Positions 4,451 through 61,520 of a DNA stretch of 64,000 nt are shown here, piece by piece. A program made the position numbers and the translations under genes. The notes beneath the pieces are model-generated. The model was not told where the DNA came from. It did no database searches and saw only the letters and a program-made list of their open reading frames with translations. Source of the DNA: Patescibacteria group bacterium (GTDB lineage: Bacteria > Patescibacteriota > Patescibacteriia > SG8-24 > DYFX01); NCBI GenBank assembly GCA_041659045.1, contig JBAZZB010000001.1, positions 198,111-262,110 of the forward strand, written 5' to 3'. Position 1 is the stretch's first letter. The number at the start of each line of letters is the position of its first letter.

Positions 4451-4912
4451 ATGAAACGCGCCAAGGTTTTGATCAATCCACGCGAGCTTCGGAAGTCTGT
4501 GCACCTGGGGGCAACGCTCATCACGAGCGGTCCGCAACACATCCCTGCACTGCCATCGACGCCGTCAGAACTGGTCGTCGAGGTGAAGCGCATCACCTTC
4601 CACGAACAGCCGGATGAGCAGGCCGCGATCGTCCGTCAGCTCCTCCGCTTGGAGCGGAACGGCAAGACCGCGATCATCGCGATGACCAAGAACGCGAAGG
4701 TGCGCGAGTGCTACGACCAGAGCCTCCTCTGGTGGGGCTGGACACTCGTCGCGAGGGGCGACGTCTTCACTGTTCAGATGGTGGTCTTCCCGAAGCCTGC
4801 CCGGACCGATCTCGTGGGGGAGGTCGATCAAGGCAGCGTCTACGAGGTTTCCACCAGCAAGATCACGCCGTGGGACGGCAAGATCCATCTGGACGACCGC
4901 GTCGCCGCCTGA
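4451..4912 (+). CDS. hypothetical protein
   Basis: 153-aa ORF with GAGGGG SD-like element upstream; consistent high-GC3 codon usage; no family recognised. Confidence 0.45.
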   Translation: MKRAKVLINPRELRKSVHLGATLITSGPQHIPALPSTPSELVVEVKRITFHEQPDEQAAIVRQLLRLERNGKTAIIAMTKNAKVRECYDQSLLWWGWTLVARGDVFTVQMVVFPKPARTDLVGEVDQGSVYEVSTSKITPWDGKIHLDDRVAA

Positions 4913-4925
4913 ACATCGCTCAGAA

Positions 4926-4951
4926 GGACCCGTACGGGCCCTTTTTCATTT
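4926..4951 (+). terminator. putative rho-independent terminator
   Basis: GC-rich near-palindrome ggacccgtacgggccc immediately followed by TTTTTCATTT, 14 nt after the stop at 4912. Confidence 0.4.
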
Positions 4952-4991
4952 GCTTGAAAAATAGGCGTCAAACGGGTAGGCTAGGCCTACC

Positions 4992-6386
4992 ATGGCACTC
5001 GATCTCGGACACGTGCATCGTATTCATTGTGTCGGTATTGGCGGCATCGGCGTTTCTGCCGCCGCTAAGTTTTTGCGTTTACAAGGAAAGGACGTGAGCG
5101 GTTCCGATACGACGCGTTCCGTCGTGACGGCTGATGCTGAGCGCGCCGGTGTGCGCGTGGTGGAGCCACTTGCCGAGAACATCACCCCAGACATCGATCT
5201 CCTCATCTATACGTCCGCCGCGCCGGAGACGCAGCTTGAACGCCAAGCGGCGGCTGCCTTCGGTATCCCGCAGTTCAGTTATTTCGAATTCCTCGGATTG
5301 TTGTCCGAGGGGTACAAAACAATTGCGATCTCCGGCACGAATGGAAAATCGACGACAACCGCGATGCTTGCGCTCATGCTTGAGAAAGCGGGCCTGGACC
5401 CGACCGTCATTGTCGGAAGTCGCGTGCCGAGTTTCGAATACGGAAACCTCCGCGTTGGAAAAAGCAATCTTTTTGTCGTTGAAGCTTGCGAATATCGCGA
5501 GCAGTTCATGAGTCTCTCTCCTTCGATGGTCGTGGTCACAAAAATCGTTGAAGATCACCTCGACTATTACCGCGATCTCGCGCATATCCAAGAAACCTTC
5601 AAGGCGTTTGCCGCGAAGGTACCAGCAGAAGGATCGCTTATTTGGAATGCGGATGACGCGGCGAGCCGCGAGACATTCAGCGGTTTCGAGCAATCAAACG
5701 GAACATTCGGTTTTTCAAAAGAGGCAGAGGTGCGCGCCGAACAGCATGAAACCGCCGAGGGTGTTCAGCGGTTTGATGCTGTCTTTAAGGACGGTGTCGT
5801 TTGGCACGGTTTGGAGATGCATGTTCCAGGGGCATTCAACGTCTTAAACGCGCTTGCGGCGATCGCTGCGGCGCGTTCGCTTGGAGCGAGCGAGGTGGCC
5901 GTGCGCGAGGCGCTGGCTTCCTTTGCCGGTATTTGGCGTCGCTTTGAAAAAGTTGGCGAGCGATATGGTGCGCCTGTTATTTCAGACTATGGACACACGC
6001 CCGACGCGATCGAAGCGACGCTGAAAGCTGCGAAAGAGTTTTTCCCAGGGAAGAAACTGATCGTTGCCTTTCAACCGCACCATCACGACCGCACGCGCAA
6101 ACTCTTCGATGCCTTCATTCCAGCCTTTGATGCCGCAGACACGCTCGTCCTTTCCGAGATCTACGGCGTCGAGGGACGCAAGGAGGGTGAGAGCGAGATC
6201 TCCTCGCGGCAACTGGTGGAAGCGGTCGAAGCGCGCGGGAAGGTGTCAGCCGTCAGCTACGCCGCCACGCCCGACGAAGCTCTGCGTCAACTCGAGGCGC
6301 TTGATACGGAAAATGCTATGATGCTCATTATGGGCGCAGGCGACATCTATTCCATCGCGTATCCACTATGCAGAACATCCCGATGA
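4992..6386 (+). CDS. murC: UDP-N-acetylmuramate--L-alanine ligase
   Basis: 464 aa; N-terminal IHCVGIGGIGVSAAAKFLRLQGKDVSGSD Rossmann region typical of MurC; Mur-ligase P-loop ISGTNGKSTTTAM. Confidence 0.75.
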   Translation: MALDLGHVHRIHCVGIGGIGVSAAAKFLRLQGKDVSGSDTTRSVVTADAERAGVRVVEPLAENITPDIDLLIYTSAAPETQLERQAAAAFGIPQFSYFEFLGLLSEGYKTIAISGTNGKSTTTAMLALMLEKAGLDPTVIVGSRVPSFEYGNLRVGKSNLFVVEACEYREQFMSLSPSMVVVTKIVEDHLDYYRDLAHIQETFKAFAAKVPAEGSLIWNADDAASRETFSGFEQSNGTFGFSKEAEVRAEQHETAEGVQRFDAVFKDGVVWHGLEMHVPGAFNVLNALAAIAAARSLGASEVAVREALASFAGIWRRFEKVGERYGAPVISDYGHTPDAIEATLKAAKEFFPGKKLIVAFQPHHHDRTRKLFDAFIPAFDAADTLVLSEIYGVEGRKEGESEISSRQLVEAVEARGKVSAVSYAATPDEALRQLEALDTENAMMLIMGAGDIYSIAYPLCRTSR

Positions 6387-8578
6387 AACCGCTCGATTCG
6401 TTCCTCTTGAAGCTCGTTCGCTACGGCTTGTTCGCGGTGTTCGCGATCCCGTTTCTTGTTTGGCTGAGCCACCTCTATCCGTGGGTGACTGGCAAGATCT
6501 TGAGTTTTGAAATTATCGTCGCACTGCTCTTCCCGTGCTACGTTCTGCTCGCCTTTCGTCGCAAAGAATTCCGTCCTTCCAAGTCGCCATTCCTCTACGC
6601 GATGCTCGCGTATTTTGCGATCGCGACGCTCTCGATGCTCTTGGGGGATAACGTGAACCGTAGTTTCTGGTCAAAGCCTGACCGTTTGACGGGCTTGTTC
6701 TTCCAATACCATCTCCTCGCCTTTTTCCTGATGGCGGGCGCGACCTGGCGTAAGGTTGTCGTGCAACCTGTGATTGCGGCGACGATTTCAGCAATCATTC
6801 TCTCACTCCACGCGCTCATCCAGGTTGCGCTCCCGGCTGCTGGTGCTGTTGACGTGCGCGGATCCGCGACGCTCGGCAACGCCAGCTATCTCGGGCAGTA
6901 TCTCGTGCCGCACCTGTTCCTCGCGGCGTGGTTGGTGCTCCGTTATTGGAAAACATCGATGCGCTGGCTCTGGCTTGCTGCCGGTGCGGTGGTGATGTTC
7001 GGCATCATCAGCACGAAATCCAAAGGCGCACTCTTGGGTGTGCTGCTTGGCGTGCTCGTCGCCTCACTCATCGCGGCGGTACGCGGTGGTAAACGCGCTC
7101 GGAAATTCAGCTTGATCGGGCTCGGACTCGTCGCCTTGGCCGTTGTCGCCTACCTGATCGGTAACCAGGTGTATCCGTTCAAACGCTGGTTGTACGATGG
7201 ACGCTTGTCGATTCAGTATTTCCAAGAAACGAGCAACTCTCGTAAACTGCTGATCGAAAACGCCATCAAGGGTATTTCGCAGCGCCCGCTTCTCGGTTGG
7301 GGCCCTGAAAACTTTGAGAGCGGCTACTACTACAACTACAATCCGAAGACGCTGGTTTTCGGCGAGTACGAAACGCGCCAGGACCGTCCGCATAACCTCG
7401 TCCTGGAGATGCTGCATAACCTTGGCGTAATCGGCTTCCTGGCCTACGCGGCGGTGTTTGCGTTCGCGGTGCGCTTGGCTGTTTCCAAAAAGCGTGAGGA
7501 TTGGGTGCTTGGTGGTGGCTTGGCTGTCGCTGCCTTCTCACAAGTCGGCACGAACCTTTTCATTTTTGAGACGCCGATGTCGTACTTGGCGCTCTTCTTC
7601 ATGTTCTCCTTGGTTGCGGCCGATGCGGCCTCGCACGAGGAGCGCGAAGAGGGCTCTGATGAATCGACGCAAGCCGCGGTACCGCTCGCGCTTATCGTTG
7701 GCGTGCTGAGTATCTGGTGCCTGTACACAGTTTCAACGACGATCCGCGCCGCGAAGATTACGGCACAGATGATCATGGCCTTGTCCCAACAAGGTCGTTC
7801 GGCCGAAGAGTGGAACGGCATGCTTACGGAATTGCGTAAAAATGAATCTCCGTTTTACGAACGCCATATTCGCGCTACGACGTCGCATCTGAGCCAAGCG
7901 CGCGGCGAATATCTTGATGGTCCGTATCTTCCGATTTTGATCGATCTGGCCGACGATGAATATCGGCGCTTCAAAAATCGCAATGACTACGTTCAAGCGC
8001 TCGTCATCTCATCAGCGTACCTGAGTTTCGGGCCGCGTACGCCTGAACAACAGGCTGCGCTCGAAGATGCCGCCGCCCGCGCGGCCGAACGTTCGCCGAA
8101 TCGGCACGAAGTCGAAATCATTCTGGCGCAAATCGCCTGGGAAAAGAATCAGCTCGATGAGGCGGAAAAACATATCGTCCGTTTCCGCGACCTTGATCCG
8201 GGAAACATCCTTGGCGATGCTTGGTGGGTGCGCTGGCAGCTAGAGTTCCGTGACCCTGTCGTAGCAGCCACGTATTTGGCGCAGAAACCGGAAATGAAGA
8301 ACAACCAAGACGCTTGGGATCAAGTCGAATACGGCACGTTGCATCTGCTCAACCAGCGCCGTTGGAAGGATCTCGTTGCCTTGCAGAAAGCTTCCGTTGA
8401 AGCGAAGTCTCGCAACGTCCAATGGGACCTTGTCGGCGCGATTGGTGCATGGGCGCTCGGTGACAAAGCAAAAAGCGATATGATTATCAGCGAGGCGCGC
8501 GCTCTCTATCCAGAGAAACTTGATTTGGTGGAAGCGATCGCCGGCCAGCGCGAAAGTATCGTTACGAACGGCGGCTAA
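6368..8578 (+). CDS. Wzy_C / O-antigen ligase family polytopic membrane protein with an approx. 300-aa C-terminal helical domain
   Basis: 736 aa; at least 10 predicted TM helices in the first approx. 430 aa; O-antigen-ligase-type motif HNLVLEMLHNLGVIGF after the periplasmic loop (GWGPENF); C-terminal soluble helical-repeat region. Confidence 0.6.
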   Translation: MQNIPMKPLDSFLLKLVRYGLFAVFAIPFLVWLSHLYPWVTGKILSFEIIVALLFPCYVLLAFRRKEFRPSKSPFLYAMLAYFAIATLSMLLGDNVNRSFWSKPDRLTGLFFQYHLLAFFLMAGATWRKVVVQPVIAATISAIILSLHALIQVALPAAGAVDVRGSATLGNASYLGQYLVPHLFLAAWLVLRYWKTSMRWLWLAAGAVVMFGIISTKSKGALLGVLLGVLVASLIAAVRGGKRARKFSLIGLGLVALAVVAYLIGNQVYPFKRWLYDGRLSIQYFQETSNSRKLLIENAIKGISQRPLLGWGPENFESGYYYNYNPKTLVFGEYETRQDRPHNLVLEMLHNLGVIGFLAYAAVFAFAVRLAVSKKREDWVLGGGLAVAAFSQVGTNLFIFETPMSYLALFFMFSLVAADAASHEEREEGSDESTQAAVPLALIVGVLSIWCLYTVSTTIRAAKITAQMIMALSQQGRSAEEWNGMLTELRKNESPFYERHIRATTSHLSQARGEYLDGPYLPILIDLADDEYRRFKNRNDYVQALVISSAYLSFGPRTPEQQAALEDAAARAAERSPNRHEVEIILAQIAWEKNQLDEAEKHIVRFRDLDPGNILGDAWWVRWQLEFRDPVVAATYLAQKPEMKNNQDAWDQVEYGTLHLLNQRRWKDLVALQKASVEAKSRNVQWDLVGAIGAWALGDKAKSDMIISEARALYPEKLDLVEAIAGQRESIVTNGG

Positions 8579-9719
8579 GCGAACGGTAGAGCGCCAAAAC
8601 GCTTTCTGTCATCACGGTTCCGGAGCGGCGTTCCGCAATGCGCGGGGCGCCGCTTTTGAGTTCTTGGTAGAGCGTGCGATCTGACAAAACGTCGCGAATG
8701 GCACGGCGAAGCGCTTCGCGGTCTCCAGGTTCTACAAGAATTCCCGTCTGACGATCGTTGATCAGTTCCGGCAAGGCGCCGACACGCGTAGCAATGATGG
8801 GGAGTTCTGCTAGCGAGGCTTCAAGAATCGTCCACGGCATTCCTTCTTTCGTGGAGGGGAGCACGAAGATGTCAAAGCCTTTCAAAAGCGTCGCGGCGTC
8901 TTTGATAGCTCCAGGCAGGTGCACGCGGTCCTTGTGTGGGAGCGCCGCATGAAGTGTTCGCAAGCGCGGCATCTCGGGGCCGTCGCCCAGAATGACAAGG
9001 TCGAGGTTCGTGAACTCTGCGGCCACGCCTTCGAAGGCCTCGAAAAGCATCGGTAAATTTTTTGCGGGATAGGCGTTGGCAATCGTGCCGAGTACCAAGT
9101 GTCCGAGACGCGTACCGCACAATTCCGCGAGTCGTGCGTGGGCGGCGTCATGCTCCAAGAAATCAACTTCGTCTCGATCGATGCCGAGAGGGATAACAGC
9201 CAGATTCTCTCTCGTCGCCAGTTTGTTGCGCAGAGCGACGTCCCGCTCCATGTCTGAAAGCGTGATCGTGGCGGTTCTTAAACGAGCGGCAATCTTTTCG
9301 CTGAGGAGAAGTGTCAGACGAAAAAGCGCGGAGCGGCGTTCGAGGAAACCCCAGCCGTGCGCCGTGTAGACGACGCGTGGTCGGTGCTTCGATCGCCACG
9401 CAGCGATAGCGCCAAGAAGCCCGGCCTTGCTGCTGTTGGTATGAAGAATGTCATACCCTTCACGATCGATGAGGCGACGCAGAGTACGTACGGCGAACAA
9501 GTCGCTGATGGGGGAGATGGGTTGCCGCAGCTCTGGAATCTCGATCGTGCGGATTGTTGATGGCAACGAGGAAAACAACTCGCTTTTTGGTGAATGACCG
9601 GCCGCAACCGTCACGTCAAACTCCGCCGAGGCCGCTCGGGCGAGGCGAGAAACATAGCGCTCGGCACCTCCCCACGCAGAGGAAGTCACGAGAAAAAGAA
9701 GTTTTTGGCGGGTCGACAT
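8562..9719 (-). CDS. glycosyltransferase, family GT4
   Basis: 385 aa; STKEGMPWTILEASLAELPIIATRVGALPELI GT4 C-terminal motif. Confidence 0.8.
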   Translation of the reverse strand: MSTRQKLLFLVTSSAWGGAERYVSRLARAASAEFDVTVAAGHSPKSELFSSLPSTIRTIEIPELRQPISPISDLFAVRTLRRLIDREGYDILHTNSSKAGLLGAIAAWRSKHRPRVVYTAHGWGFLERRSALFRLTLLLSEKIAARLRTATITLSDMERDVALRNKLATRENLAVIPLGIDRDEVDFLEHDAAHARLAELCGTRLGHLVLGTIANAYPAKNLPMLFEAFEGVAAEFTNLDLVILGDGPEMPRLRTLHAALPHKDRVHLPGAIKDAATLLKGFDIFVLPSTKEGMPWTILEASLAELPIIATRVGALPELINDRQTGILVEPGDREALRRAIRDVLSDRTLYQELKSGAPRIAERRSGTVMTESVLALYRSLSRRS

Positions 9720-33263: not shown

Positions 33264-33292
33264 TTGCGTGGGACAGCCTTTTCCTTTAAAGT
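33264..33292 (+). promoter_or_regulatory. candidate sigma70-type promoter for hpf-secA
   Basis: -35 TTGCGT (33264-33269), 17-nt spacer, -10 TAAAGT (33287-33292); ATG at 33319. Confidence 0.35.
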
Positions 33293-33318
33293 AGAGCCAC
33301 TAAAACAGGCTGTTCCCT

Positions 33319-33630
33319 ATGACCATTGATCGCATCAAAGCCACCGGAATCGAACTGACCGACGCCATTAAGGACGCCGTCGAGAAAGACCTCGCCGCGC
33401 TCGCACCGATGACGGCGCGCTTCGGCGAAGCCACCTCCGTCGATGTCGAAGTCGGCAAGACGACGAATCATCACCACAAAGGCGATATCTTCCGCGCCGA
33501 GATGAATTTGCATATTCCCGGTAAGACGATCCGCGTCGAAGAGACCGCTGAAGATCTCTACGCCGCCATCAAGGAAGCCGTCCGCACGCTCGGACGCGAA
33601 GTGGTCAAAGAAAAGGAACGCCACGACTAA
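33319..33630 (+). CDS. hpf: ribosome hibernation promoting factor (short HPF/RaiA/YfiA family)
   Basis: 103 aa; sigma54-modulation/S30EA fold; sequence features IELTDAIKDAVEKDL and HIPGKTIRVEETAEDLYAAIKEAV. Confidence 0.8.
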   Translation: MTIDRIKATGIELTDAIKDAVEKDLAALAPMTARFGEATSVDVEVGKTTNHHHKGDIFRAEMNLHIPGKTIRVEETAEDLYAAIKEAVRTLGREVVKEKERHD

Positions 33631-33636
33631 TACCGC

Positions 33637-36366
<2,730 letters not shown>

Positions 36367-53115: not shown

Positions 53116-55185
53116 ATGACTACTCGCAGCGGCCGGTCGTTTTTTTACTACGTGTCTGTTCCGTTCATCTGGCTCGGCAAAGCGCTCAGCCGGCTCGTTA
53201 AACCCTCGCCTCGCGGCAAAGTCCGCTGGGCGGTGTTGACTGTGCTCGTCCTCGCTGGATTGGCCGGGTTCTTGTCGTATCCGAACGTGTGGGACCGCGG
53301 TGCCAATGTTTGGAACGCTAAGGTTGTCGAGGCGTACAAGCTTCCTGGTGCGCTTAAGATTCCTCACTTCAAGAACGTTCCGTTCCGCCTTGGTCTCGAT
53401 CTTCAGGGTGGCACGCACCTCGTCTATGAAGCGGACACGAATGATATCGTTCCGAACGAGCGCGATGCTGCCATGGAGGGTGTGCGCGACGTCATCGAAC
53501 GCCGCGTCAACGCTTTTGGCGTCGCCGAACCGATCGTGCAAACCAACAAGTCGAACGACCGTTGGCGCATTATCGTCGAGTTGGCTGGCGTGAGTGATGT
53601 GAGCCAGGCGATCCGCATGATCGGCGAAACGCCCATCCTTGAGTTCAAGGAAGAAAACCCGGTGGAGAATATTCCTCTTACTCCGGAACAGCAGAAAGAA
53701 CTCGAGAAGAAGAATGTCGATCTCAAAAAACAGGCGAATGACACGTTGCGCAAGGCGCTCTTGAACCCGAACGACGCTTCGCTTACGTGGACGAAACTCG
53801 GGCTCGTGGGCGAATCGCAACAGCCAGAACTTTGGAAGTGGGCCGACACACATCGTGGCGCCAAAATTTCCGGCACGTTGGTTGAAGATCCGCTCGGTTG
53901 GAACGTGCTGCGCGTGAACGCACGCGATGCCGCCGCCAAAGAAGTGCGCGCAAGCCACATCTTGATCTGCTGGGAAGGCGCGCAAGGTTGTGGAGAGCCG
54001 CTCACAAAAGAGCAGGCTTTGGCGCAAGCGACCGCCCTGCGCGGTGAGTTGACGGTCCAAAACTTCGGCGAAAAAGCCAAAGCAAATTCAACCGACGGTT
54101 CGGCGCAAACGAACGCGGGTGATCTTGGTTGGTTCAGCGAAGGAGCGATGGTGAAAGAGTTCCAAGATGCCGCCTTCGCTCTCAAAACGGGAGAAATTTC
54201 CCAGCCGGTCGAATCTCCCTTTGGCTATCACCTGATCTACAAGTCCGGAGAACGTCCGCTCATCCGTTACGACGTGGACCGCATCTTCGTCGAGAAGGCG
54301 ACGGCGGCTGATGTTGCGCCGGAAGCGGATCCATGGAAGAACACCGGTTTGTCCGGCAAGCACGTGCAGCGCGCCCAGGTTGAGTTCGACCAGACCGTCA
54401 ATCGTCCGCAAGTGCTCCTGACCTTCAACGAAGAAGGGAAGGAACTCTTCGCCGAACTGACGAAGCGCAGCGTCGGAAAGCTGATCGCGATCTATCTCGA
54501 TGGCGAACCGATCTCCATTCCGCGTGTCCAGCAAGAAATCTCGGACGGCAACGCTGTGATCTCCGGAGACTTCGACGTCAAAGAAGCAAAACTTTTGTCG
54601 CAGCGCCTGAACGCCGGAGCGCTCCCGGTTCCGATCAAGCTGCTCTCGCAGCAGACGATCGGTGCTTCGCTCGGTCAGGATTCTCTCGCGAAGAGCTTGC
54701 ACGCCGGTATGATCGGTTTCCTGATCGTCGTGATCTTCATGACGCTCTACTACCGTCTGCCCGGCTTGATCGCCTCGCTTGCGTTGCTCATGTATACCGG
54801 CTTCAGCTTGGCAGTCTTCAAGATGCTCGGTGTCACCCTGACCTTGTCGGGCATCGCCGGCGTTATTCTGTCGATCGGTATGGCTGTCGACGCCAACATC
54901 CTGATCTTCGAGCGCATGAAAGAAGAATTGAAGAATGGACGACCGCTTGATTCGGCTATCGGTGAAGGTTTCAAGCGCGCCTGGACGTCCATCTACGACT
55001 CGAACATCTCGTCGCTCATCACCTGCGCGATCCTCTACACGTTCACATCGAGCTCCGTGCGCGGCTTTGCCGTCACGCTGGCGCTCGGCATCCTGATCTC
55101 CATGTTCTCCGCAATCACCGTGACGCGTACGTTGCTTCGCTTGGTCGCGCCGTGGACTACCAAATATCACTGGCTGTTCAAGTAA
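53116..55185 (+). CDS. secD: protein translocase subunit SecD with an inserted parvulin-type (PpiC) PPIase domain
   Basis: 689 aa; SecD TM1 and periplasmic head; an internal approx. 100-aa segment ASHILICW...AGDLGWFSEGAMVKEFQDAAFALKTGEISQPVESPFGYHLIYK matches the parvulin rotamase signature; C-terminal 6-TM SecD core. Confidence 0.85.
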   Translation: MTTRSGRSFFYYVSVPFIWLGKALSRLVKPSPRGKVRWAVLTVLVLAGLAGFLSYPNVWDRGANVWNAKVVEAYKLPGALKIPHFKNVPFRLGLDLQGGTHLVYEADTNDIVPNERDAAMEGVRDVIERRVNAFGVAEPIVQTNKSNDRWRIIVELAGVSDVSQAIRMIGETPILEFKEENPVENIPLTPEQQKELEKKNVDLKKQANDTLRKALLNPNDASLTWTKLGLVGESQQPELWKWADTHRGAKISGTLVEDPLGWNVLRVNARDAAAKEVRASHILICWEGAQGCGEPLTKEQALAQATALRGELTVQNFGEKAKANSTDGSAQTNAGDLGWFSEGAMVKEFQDAAFALKTGEISQPVESPFGYHLIYKSGERPLIRYDVDRIFVEKATAADVAPEADPWKNTGLSGKHVQRAQVEFDQTVNRPQVLLTFNEEGKELFAELTKRSVGKLIAIYLDGEPISIPRVQQEISDGNAVISGDFDVKEAKLLSQRLNAGALPVPIKLLSQQTIGASLGQDSLAKSLHAGMIGFLIVVIFMTLYYRLPGLIASLALLMYTGFSLAVFKMLGVTLTLSGIAGVILSIGMAVDANILIFERMKEELKNGRPLDSAIGEGFKRAWTSIYDSNISSLITCAILYTFTSSSVRGFAVTLALGILISMFSAITVTRTLLRLVAPWTTKYHWLFK

Positions 55186-55186
55186 T

Positions 55187-56098
55187 ATGTTGCGCATCAC
55201 GCATCACCGCAGAATCTACTACACGCTCTCCGGACTCCTGACCGGCCTCTCTTTGGCCGCTTGGCTCGTCTGGGGTCTCAAACCCGGTATCGACTTCACC
55301 GGGGGATCCTTGTTGGAGGTTGAGTTCTCCCAGAACCGCCCAAGCGTCGAGCAGATTGTTGAGATCGCAAAGGCAAACGTCGAAAGCGAAGAACTGACCG
55401 CGCAGCCCTTGGGGGAGAGCGGCATGGTTCTCAGAATGCCTCCGATCGAGGAAGCTGCACATCAGAAACTTTTCGCGGGGCTCAAGAGCAGCTACGAAAA
55501 GGACGGCACCGTTCTGGTTGAGAAGCGCTTTGAGTCGATCGGTCCCCTGATCGGCGAAGAGCTTCGGAAAAAGACGATCTACGCTGTCGTCGGCGCCATC
55601 TTGGCGATCATGCTCTACATCACCTACGCGTTCCGTAAGGTTTCCCACCCGGTCGCTTCCTGGAAGTACGGCGCCTGTACGGTCGTTGCCTTGGCTCACG
55701 ACGTCGTGATCCCGGTCGGCGTCTTCTCGGTGCTCGGTCACTTCTACGGTGTCGAAGTGGGCGCTTGGGTCGTGACGGCGCTTCTGACGGTTCTTGGTTT
55801 CTCGGTCCACGACACGATCGTCGTGTTCGACCGCGTTCGCGAAAATCTTTCGCATGGACGCCGCGAAAGCTTTGAGGATGTCGTCAATGTGAGCTTGAAT
55901 GAAACGCTAGGTCGCTCGATCAATACGTCGCTTACGGTGCTGTTCGTGCTTTTCTCCGCCTATTTCCTTGGCGGCGAATCCATTCGTAACTTCATCTTGA
56001 CGATGATTATCGGTATCTCGGTCGGCGTCTACTCATCGATCTTCCTGGGCAGCCCGCTGCTCGTCAGCTGGCACCTCCGCGATTCCAAGAAGGGCTAA
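55187..56098 (+). CDS. secF: protein translocase subunit SecF
   Basis: 303 aa; SecF-type N-terminal TM, periplasmic domain and C-terminal TM core (RSINTSLTVLFVLFSAYFLGG). Confidence 0.85.
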   Translation: MLRITHHRRIYYTLSGLLTGLSLAAWLVWGLKPGIDFTGGSLLEVEFSQNRPSVEQIVEIAKANVESEELTAQPLGESGMVLRMPPIEEAAHQKLFAGLKSSYEKDGTVLVEKRFESIGPLIGEELRKKTIYAVVGAILAIMLYITYAFRKVSHPVASWKYGACTVVALAHDVVIPVGVFSVLGHFYGVEVGAWVVTALLTVLGFSVHDTIVVFDRVRENLSHGRRESFEDVVNVSLNETLGRSINTSLTVLFVLFSAYFLGGESIRNFILTMIIGISVGVYSSIFLGSPLLVSWHLRDSKKG

Positions 56099-56142: not shown

Positions 56143-56180
56143 ACGCTTCCGTTGATTACGGAAGCGTCGCTTTTTTCTTT
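56143..56180 (+). terminator. strong rho-independent terminator after secF
   Basis: 9-bp stem acgcttccg (56143-56151), loop ttgatta, stem cggaagcgt (56159-56167), then cgcTTTTTTcTTT. Confidence 0.7.
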
Positions 56181-56184
56181 GTAC

Positions 56185-57504
56185 ATGCCTCAGATCGTCT
56201 TGGACTTGTCGCCGCTCTACGCGCTCTTGGACCAGTCGCCACTCCAGATCGCCTGGACGTTTTTCATGTACGGCGGTTGGATCCCGTTTGCTTGGATCCT
56301 CTGGATGGGTTTTTCGGAAATCTGGATCGGTTCGCGGCAGGACAAATACGCCGGCACGATCAACTACGTCCTCTTGAGCGTCAACATTCCGAGAATGAAC
56401 GAGCAGACGCCGAAGGCTGCCGAGCATATTTTTTCGCATCTTGCCGGCACGTTCTCCTCGCCGAACTTTAAGGAAAAGTGGCTCATCGGAAAATTTACGC
56501 CGGGTTTTTCTTTCGAGTACGCCTCGATCGATGGCTATACCCAATTCATCGTCCGTTCTCCGATTCAGTTTCGCGACCTGATCGAAGCCTCGGTTTTTTC
56601 CCAGTATCCGGACGCAGAAATCAGCGAAATCGCCGACTACACAAAAAACGTGCCGCTCAAGCATCCCGATCCGGAGTGGGATTGCTGGGGCACGGAGTTT
56701 ACGCTCGCGAAACCGTCGGCGATTCCGCTGCGCACCTACACGGAATTCGAACACACGCTCTCGCAAGAGCTGAAGGATCCGCTTTCGACGTTACTCGAAA
56801 CACTTTCGCGTCTCAAGAGAGGGGAGCAAGTCTGGATCCAGATTCTGGTCTATCCGCGCGATCAAACGTGGATCCAGGAATCAATCAAGGTTGCCAACAA
56901 AATGAAGGGCCGCGAGGTCAAGAAAAAACCTCCAGCGTGGCAAAACCTTGTCGAAGAAGGCTTCAGTCTTATGACGGTTGGTGTCAGCCAGATCGTCGGA
57001 GTCGGTGCTGAGGAAAAAGAAAAGAAAAAAGAGGAGAGTCGCGTGCCAAACCTTTCTCCAGGCGAGAAACGGTTGCTTGAAGGCGTCGAAAACAAGATGT
57101 CCAAGTTCGGCTTCGGTGTAAAAATTCGTTTTGTCTACGTTGGCAAGCGCCCCGTGTTCCGTAAAGGACCGATGATCTCGATGGTGCGCGGCGCCTTCGG
57201 CTTGTTCGGCTCACTCGACGGCAACAGTCTGAAGAACTATGGTAAAGCGGCTCCGAAGTCAGATTACTTCTGGCAGAGGTGGAGCACGGAAGAGAAGAAG
57301 ACGAAAATTATTTCACGGTTCTCAAGCCGTTCGGGCGAGGGTGCTGAGAAATTCATTTTGAACGTCGAAGAGCTGGCAAGCCTGTGGCACTTCCCGCAGA
57401 TCCTGATCAAAGCACCGCTTCTGAAAAAGGTTGATTCCCGCAAAGTCGAACCGCCGTTCGCGTTGCCCGAGGCGCCGGACGTCTTGTTGCCGACTGAAGA
57501 ATAG
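56185..57504 (+). CDS. hypothetical membrane-anchored protein (partner of the downstream ATPase)
   Basis: The track ORF begins with TTG at 56152 inside the terminator loop; the first ATG is 56185 (MPQIVLDL...); N-terminal TM segment(s) (IAWTFFMYGGWIPFAWILWMGF); the remaining approx. 380 aa are soluble with Lys-rich patches; no family recognised. Confidence 0.5.
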   Translation: MPQIVLDLSPLYALLDQSPLQIAWTFFMYGGWIPFAWILWMGFSEIWIGSRQDKYAGTINYVLLSVNIPRMNEQTPKAAEHIFSHLAGTFSSPNFKEKWLIGKFTPGFSFEYASIDGYTQFIVRSPIQFRDLIEASVFSQYPDAEISEIADYTKNVPLKHPDPEWDCWGTEFTLAKPSAIPLRTYTEFEHTLSQELKDPLSTLLETLSRLKRGEQVWIQILVYPRDQTWIQESIKVANKMKGREVKKKPPAWQNLVEEGFSLMTVGVSQIVGVGAEEKEKKKEESRVPNLSPGEKRLLEGVENKMSKFGFGVKIRFVYVGKRPVFRKGPMISMVRGAFGLFGSLDGNSLKNYGKAAPKSDYFWQRWSTEEKKTKIISRFSSRSGEGAEKFILNVEELASLWHFPQILIKAPLLKKVDSRKVEPPFALPEAPDVLLPTEE

Positions 57505-57510
57505 AGCCCT

Positions 57511-59397
57511 ATGCCGTTTACCGCGCCGCCCTACAATCACGATCACGAAAACGAAGTCATCCCGTTCGCGGAAACGAATTTTCGCGGAGAGAATCGCAAG
57601 TTCGGCATCAAAACCGACGACCGGCGCCGCCACGTCTACGTCATCGGTAAGACGGGTATGGGTAAGACGACCCTGCTCGAAAACTTCGTCATGTCCGACA
57701 TCTACGCCGGTCACGGTTTGGCGTACGTTGATCCGCACGGTGACACGGCTGACAAAATTCTCGATTTCATTCCGCCGTGGCGCATCAACGATGTTGTCTA
57801 TTTCAACCCGGCCGACATGGAGTTTCCGGTCGGTTTCAATATTCTTGAAATTGCCAACGAAAACCAAAAGCACCTCGTCGCATCCGGACTCATGGGTGTT
57901 TTCAAGAAGATTTGGCCGGATGTTTGGTCGGCGCGCATGGAGTACATCTTGCTCAACTGCGTCTTGGCGTTGCTTGATACGCCCGGCTCGACGCTCTTGG
58001 GTATCAGCCGTATTTTGGCAGACAAGGATTTTAGAAAAAAGATCGTTGAGAACGTCAAAGATCCAGTGGTGAAGGGTTTCTGGGTCAATGAATTCGCCAA
58101 GTACACCGACAAGTTCGCCTCGGAAGCAATCGCACCGGTTCAAAACAAAGTCGGTCAATTTTTGTCGAACACCGTCATCCGCAACATCGTCGCGCAGACG
58201 AAGTCCACGATCGACATTCGCAAGATCATGGATGAACGGAAAATCCTGATTGTGAACCTGTCGAAAGGCTTGGTCGGCGAAGACTCGAGCAAGCTTCTGG
58301 GCGGCATGCTGATTACGCGTCTGCAGCTCGCGGCCATGGAGCGCGTCGACATGCTCGAAAAAGACCGCCAGGACTTCTATCTCTACGTCGACGAGTTTCA
58401 AAACTTCGCGACGGAATCTTTTGCGAACATCTTGTCTGAAGCGCGTAAGTATCGCTTGGCGCTTATTACGGCTCACCAATACATCGAACAGCTCGAAGAG
58501 GAAGTCGCGGCCGCCGTCTTCGGTAACGTCGGCACAATCATCTCGTTTCGCGTCGGCGCCAATGATGCCGAGCATCTCGCGAAGGAGTTCGCGCCGGTCT
58601 TCGTCGAAGAAGATATCATCAACCTCGCGAAGTACGAGGTGTATCTCAAGCTCATGATCGACGGCGTGGCCTCTTCGCCGTTTTCAGCCAAGACGCTTTC
58701 ACCGATCGCGAAGCGAACGGATAGTCGCGAAAAGGTTGTGAAGGCATCGCGTGAGCGCTATGCGTTAACGCGCGTCGATATTGAAACGAAGGTGAATACC
58801 TGGGCGGGTTTCGATGAATCGACGGGTACGTTCACTGGCAAATCGGCTTCCGAAGGCGGTCCGAGCACCTCGGCAGGGGAGGCACCGCGAGAAAATTCAG
58901 ATCGTCAATACAAAGCGAATTGCTCGCGCTGCAACAAGGAGTTGCATTTGAAGTTCCCGCCCGATCCGAGTCGGCCATTTTACTGCAAAGAATGCTTGCC
59001 GTTTGCGCGCGCCGAAGCGTCCGCTGCTCCAAAGCCACCTATGCGAGCTGTGAGCGCGCCGTCTTCAGCGCCGCGACCTGTTCAGAAAACGACGGCGCCC
59101 GTTCCATCTCCAGCGCCGACGCCCGCGCCGGCATTGGCACCCACGCCCGCCGCGCCGCGACCCCCGAAGGTCGAAGCGCCGAAAGCGGCTCCGAAGCCGG
59201 CCGAACCAGCAAAAACAGACCGACCTCTTCCGCCTCCCCCGAAGCCTGGAATGTTTGCGGGGAAGATTCGTGTGGTGACCGGCGCACAGGAGCAAGAGAC
59301 GCTCACCCCTCCAAAACCACCAGAATCCGCGACAGCCCCTCTGCAAAAGCCAGCCCCGCCTCGTTTACCACCTTTGAGCTTAAAACCACGCGTTTGA
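57511..59397 (+). CDS. FtsK/HerA/TraD-superfamily P-loop ATPase (VirD4/TraG coupling-protein-like) with C-terminal zinc ribbon and Pro/Ala-rich tail
   Basis: 628 aa; Walker A VIGKTGMGKTT, Walker B YLYVDEFQNF, T4CP-like YVDPHGD and YFNPADMEFPVGFNIL segments, Q-rich LALITAHQYIEQL; C-terminal CSRC-x17-CKEC ribbon then PAPTPAPALAPTPAAPRPPK low complexity; 7 nt downstream of the preceding gene. Confidence 0.6.
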   Translation: MPFTAPPYNHDHENEVIPFAETNFRGENRKFGIKTDDRRRHVYVIGKTGMGKTTLLENFVMSDIYAGHGLAYVDPHGDTADKILDFIPPWRINDVVYFNPADMEFPVGFNILEIANENQKHLVASGLMGVFKKIWPDVWSARMEYILLNCVLALLDTPGSTLLGISRILADKDFRKKIVENVKDPVVKGFWVNEFAKYTDKFASEAIAPVQNKVGQFLSNTVIRNIVAQTKSTIDIRKIMDERKILIVNLSKGLVGEDSSKLLGGMLITRLQLAAMERVDMLEKDRQDFYLYVDEFQNFATESFANILSEARKYRLALITAHQYIEQLEEEVAAAVFGNVGTIISFRVGANDAEHLAKEFAPVFVEEDIINLAKYEVYLKLMIDGVASSPFSAKTLSPIAKRTDSREKVVKASRERYALTRVDIETKVNTWAGFDESTGTFTGKSASEGGPSTSAGEAPRENSDRQYKANCSRCNKELHLKFPPDPSRPFYCKECLPFARAEASAAPKPPMRAVSAPSSAPRPVQKTTAPVPSPAPTPAPALAPTPAAPRPPKVEAPKAAPKPAEPAKTDRPLPPPPKPGMFAGKIRVVTGAQEQETLTPPKPPESATAPLQKPAPPRLPPLSLKPRV

Positions 59398-59467: not shown

Positions 59468-60022
59468 ATGGAATGGCTGAAAGAGGCAACGCTTCTGCGC
59501 AGAATCCGGTCGGGAGACGAAACGGCGTTCGTTGAGACGTACGAGCTTTTCGGCCCGAAAATCTATCGACACGCCTTATTTCGCACCAGCTCGCCAGAAA
59601 CGGCTGACGACATCATGAGCGAAACCTTCGTGCGCGCTTGGGAAACCATTCGCGTGAAGGCGGCTGAAATTCAGCGTCTACGAGCCTTTCTCTATCGGGT
59701 CGCGGACAACCTCATCATCGATCATTACCGTCGCAACGCCCGCTCCGCCGTCTCGATGACTGACGAGATTGAGGAATCCCTGCAAGCCCCGGGGGACCCG
59801 CACGCTGAGATCGACCGCTTGCTGAGGAGTGAACGACTGGCACAGGAACTCGCGCAAATGAGACCCGAAGTCCGCGACCTCCTTGTGATGCGTTACGTCG
59901 ACGACCTCTCGATCGAAGAGATCGCAAGCGTGACCGGAAAGAAAAAAAACGCCGTCTACGTCGCGCTTCATCGCGCCGTCAAAGAATTGAAACTCGCATG
60001 TCCTGCAATCCCAGAGAATTAA
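59468..60022 (+). CDS. ECF-type RNA polymerase sigma-70 family factor
   Basis: 184 aa; sigma70 region 2 (YRHALFRTSS...ETFVRAWE) and region 4 HTH (LSIEEIASVTGKKKNAVYVALHRA). Confidence 0.8.
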   Translation: MEWLKEATLLRRIRSGDETAFVETYELFGPKIYRHALFRTSSPETADDIMSETFVRAWETIRVKAAEIQRLRAFLYRVADNLIIDHYRRNARSAVSMTDEIEESLQAPGDPHAEIDRLLRSERLAQELAQMRPEVRDLLVMRYVDDLSIEEIASVTGKKKNAVYVALHRAVKELKLACPAIPEN

Positions 60023-60801
60023 AAGAACTCCGACGCTTTCCGGTTCCGGCGAGCGCTCTTGAGACTGGTCGTGAACGGTTGCGTATCGTCATGGCGGAAT
60101 TGCCGTTCGTGCCGGGGACGAGCCGTCGATTCGGCATTTTTATCTGGAAGCCTGCCATGACCTTCGCGTTGGTGTGTGTGCTTGTGCTTTCAAGCGGGGG
60201 AGTCGTCATGGCTTCTCGAGGCGCTGTTCCTGGCGAACGTTTGTACCCGGTGAAACTCGTTTCCGAGGGCGTCCAAGAGCGTCTGGCAGTTTCGCCTGCG
60301 CGGAAGTTTACGGTACAAGCCGCGCACGCCGCGCATCGTTTGGAAGAGACGGAAAAACTTATCGTCAACAAGAAATTGATCGAAGAGGATCGTGACGAGC
60401 GCATCCAAACTGCCTTGCAAGGTTATGAAGATCACCTTTTCACGATGAGTGCGCTTGCGGTGCGCTTGTCCGTAGATCCGCCAAAGCTGAAAGCGGGTGA
60501 CCGCGCGCTCCAGGCCGCTGAGCGTATGTTCGACCGGCACGCCGAGCTTGTCGATTCGGCGACCGTCACCCAACTCGTCTTGGCCGAAGCGGTGCTTGAA
60601 CCTATCGACATGACGCTTGATTTGCAGAACGAAGTGCTTGAGGCCAGGATGAATCGTGGTCGAGAGCGAGGTGACGAAAAAGACCACGACGAGCTCGAGG
60701 AACGTCATCATGTGCGCTCCGAAAAAATTCAAAAGCGTTTGAGAACGTTCCAGTTTGAGCTTGAAGCCGTAAAAACACTTGAAAACATTCCAAAAAAGTG
60801 A
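59998..60801 (+). CDS. putative anti-sigma factor / DUF5667-like membrane protein
   Basis: Overlaps the sigma gene by 25 nt; single TM (MTFALVCVLVLSSGGVVMA) then an extracytoplasmic helical domain; call by position and architecture only. Confidence 0.4.
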   Translation: MSCNPRELKELRRFPVPASALETGRERLRIVMAELPFVPGTSRRFGIFIWKPAMTFALVCVLVLSSGGVVMASRGAVPGERLYPVKLVSEGVQERLAVSPARKFTVQAAHAAHRLEETEKLIVNKKLIEEDRDERIQTALQGYEDHLFTMSALAVRLSVDPPKLKAGDRALQAAERMFDRHAELVDSATVTQLVLAEAVLEPIDMTLDLQNEVLEARMNRGRERGDEKDHDELEERHHVRSEKIQKRLRTFQFELEAVKTLENIPKK

Positions 60802-60818
60802 TATACTTTCTCCGGAAT

Positions 60819-61520
60819 ATGCCGGAAAAAGTTTTATCTTTGAAAGCCGTCCTCGCGTCATCCGCCCTGTTTTTCTTGTTGGCCTCGCCGGCCGACGCTT
60901 TTCAGCCTTCCACATTCGATACGGACGGGGATGGCTATGATGATGCGACCGAAATGGCATTCGGCTATACGCCGTACGGCGTAGGTCGCTTGGATACGAA
61001 CGATGCGGACAGCGACCATCTTTCAGATGGCGATGAGATTATTTTTGGAACCGACCCGCTGTTGCAGGATTCGGACCATGACGGCTACGAAGACGGTGTT
61101 GAAGTAAAATCGGGCTACGATCCTGCCAGGGGCAATGAAGCGCGACTCAAGAAACGCATCGTTATTACGCTCGCGTCACAGACGTTGACGTATTCGATTG
61201 GTCCGAAAAAAATTGAAACATTCTCCGTTTCAACCGGACGTCCTGGTCGCCCAACGCCGATTGGAACGTTCACGATTCGCGACAAAATGCCGAGGGCGTG
61301 GTCGCGGAGCGCTAAGCTCTGGATGCCATATTGGATGCCGTTTATCGGTACGACGTATGGCCTGCATGAGCTGCCCGAGTGGCCAGGAGGCAAAAAGGAG
61401 GGCGAGGACCACCTCGGCACGCCGGTTTCTGGCGGCTGCGTCCGTTTAGGTGTCGGACCCGCGAAAACACTCTACGAGTGGGCTGAGGTCGGTACGGAAG
61501 TCACGATTTCAAAAACCTGA
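60819..61520 (+). CDS. L,D-transpeptidase (YkuD domain) with N-terminal Asp-rich calcium-binding-like repeats
   Basis: Signal peptide MPEKVLSLKAVLASSALFFLLASPADA; three D-x-D-x-D-G repeats (DTDGDGYDD, DADSDHLSDGDE, DSDHDGYEDG); YkuD catalytic region HELPEWPGG...GTPVSGGCVRL (His/Cys). Confidence 0.75.
   Translation: MPEKVLSLKAVLASSALFFLLASPADAFQPSTFDTDGDGYDDATEMAFGYTPYGVGRLDTNDADSDHLSDGDEIIFGTDPLLQDSDHDGYEDGVEVKSGYDPARGNEARLKKRIVITLASQTLTYSIGPKKIETFSVSTGRPGRPTPIGTFTIRDKMPRAWSRSAKLWMPYWMPFIGTTYGLHELPEWPGGKKEGEDHLGTPVSGGCVRLGVGPAKTLYEWAEVGTEVTISKT

Follow-up and report, generated by a model that had tools for sequence, protein, structure and literature searches.

The window analysed here, a 64,000-nucleotide stretch of a Patescibacteria genome, carries two consecutive forward-strand genes downstream of secD (53116-55185, +), which has an inserted parvulin/rotamase domain, and secF (55187-56098, +), the Pfam assignments of both sec genes being taken from their orthologues. 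Gene A (56185..57504, +) encodes 439 aa from an ATG at 56185 and belongs to the DUF8128 family (PF26449); gene B (57511..59397, +) encodes a 628-aa ATPase of the type-IV coupling protein (T4CP) type, similar to TrwB/VirD4. Both ORFs and their lengths, as given in the original prediction, were confirmed from the sequence, except that the spacer between the gene A stop and the gene B ATG counts 6 nt (57505-57510) rather than 7. With homologues reaching E = 1e-279 for gene A and E = 0 for gene B, both genes are far beyond chance. The interval between secF and gene A holds an intrinsic terminator (56143..56175, +) in which a stem (56143-56167) of 10 GC-rich base pairs plus two outer pairs closes a 5-nt loop and is followed by a T-run. 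The hairpin has a free energy of -19.9 kcal/mol (z = -5.67 against shuffles, none of 200 folding as well), in keeping with the strong terminator proposed earlier, although its stem had been put at 9 bp. A longer form of gene A, beginning at a TTG at 56152, is unlikely because this codon lies inside the terminator hairpin. A search upstream of gene A for a sigma-70-type promoter found none, and neither tRNA genes nor Rfam matches were detected across the window.

The window ORFs scanned for domains (20, mostly the largest) encode cell-envelope glycosyltransferases, SecA, SecDF, an ECF sigma factor and a YkuD protein, and none contains a T4SS, relaxase or integrase domain. The same three categories are missing within +/-10 kb of the orthologous pair in five annotated loci (L001, L003, L005, L088 and L006, the last checked with a shorter upstream flank than the others), and the claim that no conjugation genes lie nearby thus holds for both sets. 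Upstream of the pair and on the same strand, secF is found in 45 of 71 informative loci, at no more than 600 nt in 29 and no more than 2.5 kb in 43, and the secD-secF-A-B arrangement is seen repeatedly, in loci titled Paceibacter, Uhrbacteria, Magasanikbacteria, Kerfeldbacteria and Buchananbacteria. We therefore regard secDF as a frequent upstream neighbour of the pair, a description of the neighbourhood that claims no functional link.

The products of gene A and gene B

The gene A product has a single strongly hydrophobic, aromatic-rich segment at aa 22-40 (56248..56304, +; Wimley-White -15.8 kcal/mol), the sole such 19-mer, situated within a modelled helix spanning residues 19-56. No other segment of the protein falls below -2 in the Wimley-White scan, and the "TM segment(s)" of the original prediction can be narrowed to exactly one. 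The protein is predicted to have its N-terminus outside and its C-terminus inside the cell. The DUF8128 domain must be cytoplasmic, because a fused paralogue (see below) runs from a TM equivalent to that of gene A (aa 17-48) through a RAHARR motif and DUF8128 to an ATPase, with no further TM. Gene A is thus single-pass, exposes about 20 residues externally and lacks a P-loop.

The assignment to DUF8128 was made through precomputed PF26449 annotations of homologues, present on all of the best 120 full-length ones (42-92% identity) and on the orthologue in L001 (91% identical). The large soluble domain had been described as belonging to no recognisable family; it is in fact DUF8128, a family comprising over 3,000 clusters when grouped at 50% identity, with a probable VirB4 N-terminal-domain fold. 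The structure model of gene A matches TrwK/VirB4 by two methods, and the part matched is the N-terminal domain of VirB4, since no P-loop ATPase occurs among the matches. As modelled, the large soluble domain resembles the VirB4 N-terminal domain in fold. The DUF8128 profile gave no match to PDB sequences at E <= 10, hhalign of the DUF8128 alignment with pSK41 TrsD gave nothing, and a broadened alignment (split plus fused N-terminal halves) gave nothing significant against TrwK, the TrwK N-terminal half, TrsE, TrsD or TrsD+TrsE. Custom DUF8128 HMMs likewise matched none of TrwK, TrsE, TrsD and the 854-aa VirB4-like ATPase of the Bacillus plasmid described below. Given these results from profile, hhalign and HMM comparisons, the link between gene A and VirB4 (TrwK of R388; the split TrsD+TrsE of pSK41/pGO1) is one of fold only, with no sequence similarity.

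Judged against Pfam gathering cut-offs, gene B passes three T4CP models, TrwB_AAD_bind (40 bits, cut-off 20.5), TraG-D_C (29.2 bits, cut-off 22) and T4SS-DNA_transf (22.8 bits, cut-off 20.1), which bears out its proposed resemblance to type-IV coupling proteins; no NCBIfam equivalog cut-off is reached. Pairwise BLAST aligns it with TrwB (21% over 296 aa, E = 9e-7) and not with TrwK (E = 5), and hhalign aligns it over 296 columns with the VirD4-like TrsK of pSK41 and over 98 C-terminal columns only with the VirB4-like TrsE. The VirB4 model TIGR00929 gives 24.5 bits, under its cut-off of 643, and covers aa 285-374 only, and Pfam CagE_TrbE_VirB and AAA_10 do not match. By sequence, then, gene B is T4CP-like and not VirB4-like. 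All the motifs listed earlier are present: the Walker A motif GKTGMGKT (aa 46-53; 57646..57669, +), of which G46, K47, T48, G49, G51 and K52 are invariant in 40 homologues, YVDPHGD, the Walker B region YLYVDEFQNF (aa 290-299; 58378..58407, +), with Y292, D294, E295, F296, Q297, N298 and F299 invariant in the same number, and LITAHQYIEQL. The nucleotide-binding domain has an all-alpha insertion (aa ~117-241; 57859..58233, +) that resembles the all-alpha domain of T4CPs. From its sequence, gene B is a catalytically intact T4CP-type nucleotide-binding domain. No hydrophobic segment was found in it, consistent with the proposal that it lacks a membrane domain of its own.

Downstream of the ATPase lies a CxxC-x17-CxxC zinc ribbon (aa 466-497; 58906..59001, +; C471-x2-C474-x17-C492-x2-C495), also foreseen in the original prediction, which scores just above the cut-off of Pfam zf_Tbcl_2 (27.3 against 27 bits) and under that of NCBIfam TIGR04272 (28.2 against 36 bits). 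In 40 homologues C471 and C474 are invariant and C492 is conserved in at least 90%, and the region is ordered in the structure model. It is followed by a Pro/Ala/Lys-rich C-terminal tail (aa 506-628; 59026..59397, +; P 31%, A 17%, K 9%) predicted to be disordered, with pLDDT < 50 over most of its length; the Pro-rich character noted earlier is real, its extent being 123 aa rather than approximately 100. Homologues of gene B mostly end in GQxI[KR]F[DE], a motif that has diverged in this lineage.

Split and fused members of the family

The adjacency of the two genes, with B after A, is kept in 59 of 72 informative related loci, and in some relatives they overlap by 4 nt; in a Falkowbacteria-like subclade, gene A has no gene B within 8 kb. 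Both parts can also occur in one polypeptide. A single ORF in another locus (L066:1-2130) holds the A and B parts, and its best 120 matches are all of ~840-865 aa and carry PF26449 together with at least one T4CP or HerA-type ATPase model, in most cases PF10412. The members of this ~850-aa patescibacterial family have the same modules in the same order as the A-B pair (TM helix, DUF8128, ATPase), and the alignment is collinear, gene A corresponding to residues 73-413 of the fused protein and gene B to residues 415-820. Unlike the A-B pair, the fused paralogues have neither the zinc ribbon nor the Pro-rich tail, and their genes usually adjoin corA, not secDF; in one genome, the split and fused paralogues both flank secDF. 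The earlier suggestion that the upstream partner supplies the membrane anchor gains support from the conserved adjacency and from the fused TM-DUF8128-ATPase proteins, and A and B very probably form a two-part motor.

More distant fused homologues, at 22-27% identity, are found in phages and plasmids, where both halves are detected by custom HMMs as well as by BLAST, and these versions lack the membrane helix as well as, like the patescibacterial fusions, the zinc ribbon and the Pro-rich tail. The protein family phrog_5156, which includes SPO1 gp27.4 and phage G gp156, spans A and then B in order. SPO1 gp27.4 adjoins a nicking protein (nickase), and a 913-aa homologue on a Bacillus subtilis plasmid lies beside Tcp-like transfer genes and a gene of the relaxase family, and is the only T4CP in the annotation of that plasmid. 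VirD4 of pLS20 was considered as the plasmid homologue and rejected, the Bacillus plasmid cluster being Tcp-like and not pLS20-like. A scan of IMG/VR with DUF8128 motifs gave no relative; it used exact-motif patterns only, and PHROGs and GenBank phages do hold the distant fused homologues. Occurrence of the pair inside mobile elements, which the original prediction saw as arguing against itself, was never encountered among close relatives, but it does apply to the distant fused homologues of the plasmid and SPO1-like phages. We found no published function for fused DUF8128-T4CP proteins.

The conserved adjacency, the ~850-aa fused paralogues and the distant fused homologues beside a relaxase-family gene or nickase suggest that the pair is best placed within a "long" T4CP family, as a chromosomal branch in which the gene has split and A serves as the membrane anchor. 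Since the outgroups are fused, the split pair would have arisen by fission of an ancestral fused gene, and we consider a fission origin from a T4CP lineage of mobile elements to be likely.

Relation to known systems and possible roles

Like VirD4/TrwB, gene B combines a nucleotide-binding domain recognised by curated models with an all-alpha insertion. It differs from T4CPs such as VirD4, TrwB of R388 and DotL, which have an N-terminal TM domain in cis, in having its anchor on gene A, and it carries in addition a zinc ribbon and a Pro-rich tail. T4CP genes are associated with relaxase and/or T4SS channel genes, whereas the A-B pair has no relaxase or mating-pair-formation genes nearby (VirB3, VirB6 and VirB8-type genes are absent beside it in all annotated loci), and its locus is chromosomal and looks vertically inherited. 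A VirB4-like N-terminal partner domain also falls outside the T4CP description used for this comparison (PMC7431656). A recognised class of T4CPs (class iii of Llosa and Alkorta) lacks a membrane domain and depends on a membrane partner; it includes TraJ/TraI of pIP501, in which a membrane protein encoded by a separate gene is proposed to recruit the soluble ATPase to the membrane (PMC7431656). The A-B pair shares with TraJ/TraI this combination of soluble ATPase and separately encoded membrane protein, but lies outside conjugation operons, in which TraJ/TraI-type pairs are located. The partner in such pairs is a small membrane protein that is not known to have a VirB4-like domain. Similarity to EccE and EccC of type VII secretion is weaker than that to VirB4 and TrwB; EccC, unlike gene B, contains three ATPase domains together with membrane helices of its own, and none of the EccB, EccD, MycP and WXG100 genes of those systems accompanies the pair.

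Patescibacteria make up a very large, mostly uncultured share of bacterial diversity and live on other cells, and the pair bears on how macromolecules cross their envelope. The T4SS is essential in the only genetically tractable species. The ATPase homologues had already been counted in the literature: VirD4-like T4CP homologues are near-universal in Patescibacteria (5,713 in 2,918 genomes) and are rarely near virB4 (PMC12102498). These scattered T4CP-like genes, until now left as 'possibly exapted', gain an anatomy here, namely a DUF8128 anchor partner, a predicted VirB4-like fold, split and fused forms, and relatives adjacent to nickase or relaxase genes; the pair is an unusual hybrid of both signature type IV secretion ATPases, and a domain of unknown function acquires a testable hypothesis. 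Literature searches found no paper on PF26449 or DUF8128, nor any naming a DUF8128 partner, fusion or secDF linkage.

We are inclined, by a modest preference, to see A and B as the two parts of a single translocation ATPase that is anchored in the membrane and belongs to the T4CP (VirD4/TrwB) lineage. A would keep B against the cytoplasmic side of the membrane, in an arrangement comparable to that of VirB4, whose N-terminal domain rests on the ATPase domain of the same protein, and B would form a TrwB-like ring and hydrolyse ATP, with cargo recruited by its all-alpha domain, zinc ribbon and tail. With a single helix and barely any residues outside the cell, an anchor such as A cannot by itself be a conduit, so the motor would have to work into a separate channel whose genes lie elsewhere, and the stand-alone translocation module proposed earlier is not borne out. 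That this channel is the patescibacterial T4SS is a tentative suggestion, to which we give somewhat less than even weight. In Southlakia, the T4SS cluster has no recognisable coupling protein (PMC12102498; PMC10633639), and the T4SS genes are essential while the t4cp homologue is not (PMC12102498); the two paralogues could mask a requirement for it. A T4SS role leaves the frequent secDF linkage unexplained, and the annotated loci have no T4SS gene in the vicinity of the pair. We discarded the occurrence of T4CP in 96% of genomes against VirB4 in 80% as evidence for T4SS independence; it can be used neither way, because two copies versus one at ~80% genome completeness gives the same numbers.

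A broader reading, which we think rather improbable, is that DUF8128-T4CP is a 'bridge' family with a VirB4-type N-terminal domain on a T4CP-type motor, both patescibacterial paralogues having been taken from a monoderm mobile element as a conjugation-independent cytoplasmic motor. If true, it would bear on the origin of coupling proteins from VirB4-like ancestors, and the split zinc-ribbon form (often by secDF) and the fused form (by corA) would be the long-sought motor by which nucleic acids or proteins, whether derived from the host or acting as effectors, pass through the membrane of the epibiont.

The pair might act instead at the Sec/SecDF translocon or on Sec-inserted proteins, either as a VirB4-like dislocase that pulls membrane proteins such as pilins out of the bilayer or by using ATP to assist export, and would then be no coupling protein of a T4SS. 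VirB4 reportedly extracts pilin from the membrane, and the predicted VirB4-type N-terminal domain of gene A, the recurrent secD-secF-A-B order with secF so often close by (29 and 43 of the 71 loci at the two distances), and the genome in which both paralogues flank secDF are consistent with such a role. We nevertheless judge it unlikely: a strong terminator parts secF from gene A in the window, another gene intervenes in many ABY1-type loci, about one third of loci have no secDF in the flank, the fused paralogue is usually by corA, and in phages and plasmids the homologues are accompanied by nickase or relaxase genes, not Sec genes; retained ancestral gene order could account for the linkage. 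Equal odds attach to a T4SS-independent, membrane-tethered DNA or RNA translocase, serving uptake (with ComEC or another pore) or, FtsK-like, chromosome handling at division. Descent of the family from DNA-handling partners (the SPO1 nickase, the plasmid relaxase-family gene), the fold that gene B shares with the TrwB, HerA and FtsK DNA translocases, its zinc ribbon and basic tail, and the dependence of Patescibacteria on scavenged nucleotides all favour it, as does the import of host RNA reported for one cultured member (bioRxiv 10.64898/2026.06.21.733656). FtsK/SpoIIIE translocases, however, combine an FtsK_SpoIIIE motor domain with a DNA-recognition (gamma) domain, whereas gene B stays below the FtsK_SpoIIIE cut-off (13.9 against 24 bits) and no gamma or KOPS-type DNA-binding domain was detected in it; papers on Saccharibacterium TM7x mention FtsK, and ComEC is dispensable in Southlakia (reviewed in PMC12857230).

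Anti-phage defence, by an ATPase of the MADS mad8/DptH/HerA type, is a far more remote prospect. Gene B matches mad8 in PADLOC (5.8e-16), but gene A has no PADLOC match. In MADS, mad8 stands in an operon with other mad genes including a methyltransferase, and no methyltransferase, nuclease, mad or dnd gene adjoins the pair here or in annotated related loci. Gene B is 60-75% identical across related loci in a fixed housekeeping context, which is typical of a vertically inherited core gene rather than of a defence island. Just as improbable is a remnant of an integrated conjugative element or prophage, that is, mobile DNA with no host function, as the distant homologues in phages and plasmids might suggest: no IMG/VR relative shares the exact DUF8128 motifs, GC content reveals no island, and neither an integrase or relaxase nor a tRNA gene or repeat boundary is present. 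The position beside secDF instead recurs across several named lineages, and a complete 1.17-Mb genome shows full synteny over the region, its proteins being 67-96% identical in amino-acid sequence and those of the pair and secDF 85-96%.

The two genes behind secDF

Genes A and B lie on the forward strand, co-directional with secD (53116-55185) and secF (55187-56098). The ORF listing places the start of A at an ATG at 56185 (439 aa) and B at 57511-59397 (628 aa), with 6 nt between the A stop codon and the B start. An intrinsic terminator (stem 56143-56167 followed by a T-run; -19.9 kcal/mol, z = -5.7) sits between secF and A, and an alternative TTG start of A at 56152 falls within its stem. A has a single strongly hydrophobic, aromatic-rich segment (aa 22-40), while no hydrophobic segment was found in B. 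B contains the zinc-ribbon cysteines C471-x2-C474-x17-C492-x2-C495 and ends in a 123-aa tail that is 31% proline. The original description of a membrane-anchored protein and a split T4CP-like ATPase after SecDF is confirmed, and every motif quoted in it was found in B. Two long ORFs on the reverse strand, one opposite B (57322-58575, 417 aa) and the other opposite secA (33286-35700, 804 aa), gave no family matches where tested; most likely they are non-coding and a consequence of the 55-57% GC content.

Evidence for a partnership of A and B

We gathered 86 loci from public genomes and metagenomes, 72 of which have enough sequence downstream of A; B follows A directly in 59 of these 72, and the two genes overlap by 4 nt in some relatives. 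At one locus (L066), a DUF8128-like part and a T4CP-like ATPase directly after it form one uninterrupted ORF. The best 120 matches to this ORF are all proteins of ~840-865 aa with PF26449 and at least one T4CP or HerA-type ATPase model each, PF10412 in most cases. In one such fused protein (P0388), residues 73-413 align with A and residues 415-820 with B, and the fused and split forms occur together in one genome. The adjacency and the fused family support the core idea of the original prediction, that A may supply the membrane anchor of B, and the anatomy of the pair is well supported. A belongs to DUF8128 (PF26449), and the earlier view that it has no recognisable family needs revision. In the fused protein, basic residues follow a clear membrane helix at aa 17-48 and there is no further helix, so the DUF8128 domain must be cytoplasmic, on the same side of the membrane as the ATPase.

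The fused paralogue, unlike the split pair, adjoins corA and a gene for a conserved ~160-aa protein without a Pfam match (9498-9995 in L088, 9510-9992 in L089 and 9499-9990 in L090, three loci carrying the fused gene). The latter ends 5-10 nt before the fused gene, its C-terminal half is ~50% identical between loci, and corA lies upstream of it, divergently transcribed; it has no counterpart beside the split pair or elsewhere in the window.

A Falkowbacteria-like subclade has A without any B within 8 kb (L031, L035, L038, L051-L053, L059, L077 and L083, around position 8000-9500). Here the DUF8128 gene is flanked by a ~345-aa sigma-70-region-4-like gene and a GT4 glycosyltransferase; this sigma-like gene also intervenes between secF and A in other ABY1-type loci, e.g. 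L088. In a locus titled Uhrbacteria (L019, 8259-9704), the regular B is immediately followed by a 481-aa T4CP-like gene with 40% identity to B and no zinc ribbon, and L081 (1-552) and L064 (11410-12093) carry partial extra copies of genes resembling A or B. Many DUF8128 proteins carry a C-terminal PPxNLP[FLV]A motif after a disordered linker, as do most B homologues with GQxI[KR]F[DE]; the C-terminal ends have diverged in the window lineage (…LLPTEE in A, …LSLKPRV in B).

Relatives on phages and plasmids

With the fused protein as tblastn query, full-length homologues were found in Bacillus phage G (gp156, E = 1e-42), in SPO1-like myophages and on Bacillus, Streptomyces, Embleya, Clostridium and archaeal plasmids. 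A PHROGs family of unknown function, phrog_5156 (824 positions), aligns with A at positions 62-291 and with B at 385-792. Its members are the 900-aa fused DUF8128-T4CP homologues of phage G and SPO1-like phages. One of them, SPO1 gp27.4 (4536-7256 in locus L093), adjoins both a partition protein and gp27.3, annotated 'replication initiation by nicking'; gp27.4 and the nicking protein look like a conjugation-like DNA-processing pair within a lytic phage. On a 63.6-kb B. subtilis plasmid, the gene for a 913-aa homologue precedes one of the replication-relaxation family and a Tcp-like transfer cluster, with no further T4CP among the plasmid annotations. Custom HMMs recovered both the DUF8128 and ATPase halves in these phage and plasmid proteins, which are without a membrane helix.

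B shares 45% identity with the Patescibacterial fused paralogue, against 25-27% with the phage and plasmid proteins. Judging from these identities, the most economical history would be that a fused 'long T4CP' moved from monoderm mobile elements to the chromosome of Patescibacteria, where it gained a membrane helix; this gene would then have been duplicated and one copy split into A and B, with B acquiring its zinc ribbon and tail.

Possible function and genomic setting

T4CPs that have no membrane domain of their own and rely on a membrane partner are a recognised class (PMC7431656), which A-B resembles by analogy in having an ATPase that would depend on a separate membrane protein. It differs from this class in the predicted VirB4-like N-terminal domain of the partner, in its chromosomal location without a relaxase, in the zinc ribbon of B and in the existence of a fused sister family. 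By sequence the pair does not qualify as VirB4, and it does not qualify as FtsK, MADS or T7SS either.

The membrane contribution of A is limited to one helix and ~20 external residues, and the pair therefore cannot be a conduit by itself, so that the 'stand-alone' module proposed originally needs revision. For this reason we favour a role for A-B as a docking motor that would feed a separate channel; the Patescibacterial T4SS is the most plausible candidate. In Patescibacteria, 5,713 VirD4-like homologues have been counted in 2,918 of 3,035 genomes, only 148 of them near virB4, and their role was left open by the authors (PMC12102498); the essential T4SS cluster of Southlakia is without a recognisable coupling protein (PMC10633639).

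It is also possible that the pair has a Sec-linked role: in most loci secDF immediately precedes the pair or is separated from it by a single gene (within 2.5 kb in 43 of 71), and the terminator between secF and A argues against obligatory co-transcription in the window. A T4SS-independent nucleic-acid pump is likewise possible. A defence function, suggested by a match of B to PADLOC mad8, is much less likely than either of these, as the pair has no defence context around it.

Every annotated locus has the orthologous pair embedded in housekeeping DNA, and a complete 1.17-Mb genome shows full synteny with the window locus. The window has an even GC content and no tRNA genes. The 20 ORFs scanned in it encode envelope glycosyltransferases, SecA, an ECF sigma factor, a DUF5667 protein and a YkuD protein, and none of them contains a T4SS, relaxase or integrase domain. 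The ECF-type sigma gene (59468-60022) comes immediately after B, no terminator being detected between them, and overlaps the gene for the DUF5667 protein (59998-60801), a possible anti-sigma factor; next comes a YkuD L,D-transpeptidase containing TSP3 repeats (60798-61520). This arrangement is kept in the closest relatives (L001, L007) and not in more distant ones.

SecD carries a parvulin-type PPIase (Rotamase / Rotamase_3) between SecD_1st and the P1 head, making it in effect a SecD-PrsA-like fusion; all related Patescibacteria loci with Pfam annotation (L001, L003, L005, L088) have this insertion. Further upstream, a ~30-kb stretch (1740-32186) is dominated by cell-envelope glycan genes, with several GT4 glycosyltransferases, one of them a 739-aa double GT4 and another a 783-aa GT4-PMT_2 fusion, together with a Wzy_C O-antigen ligase-like protein, a sugar transferase, an asparagine synthase and a C-methyltransferase.
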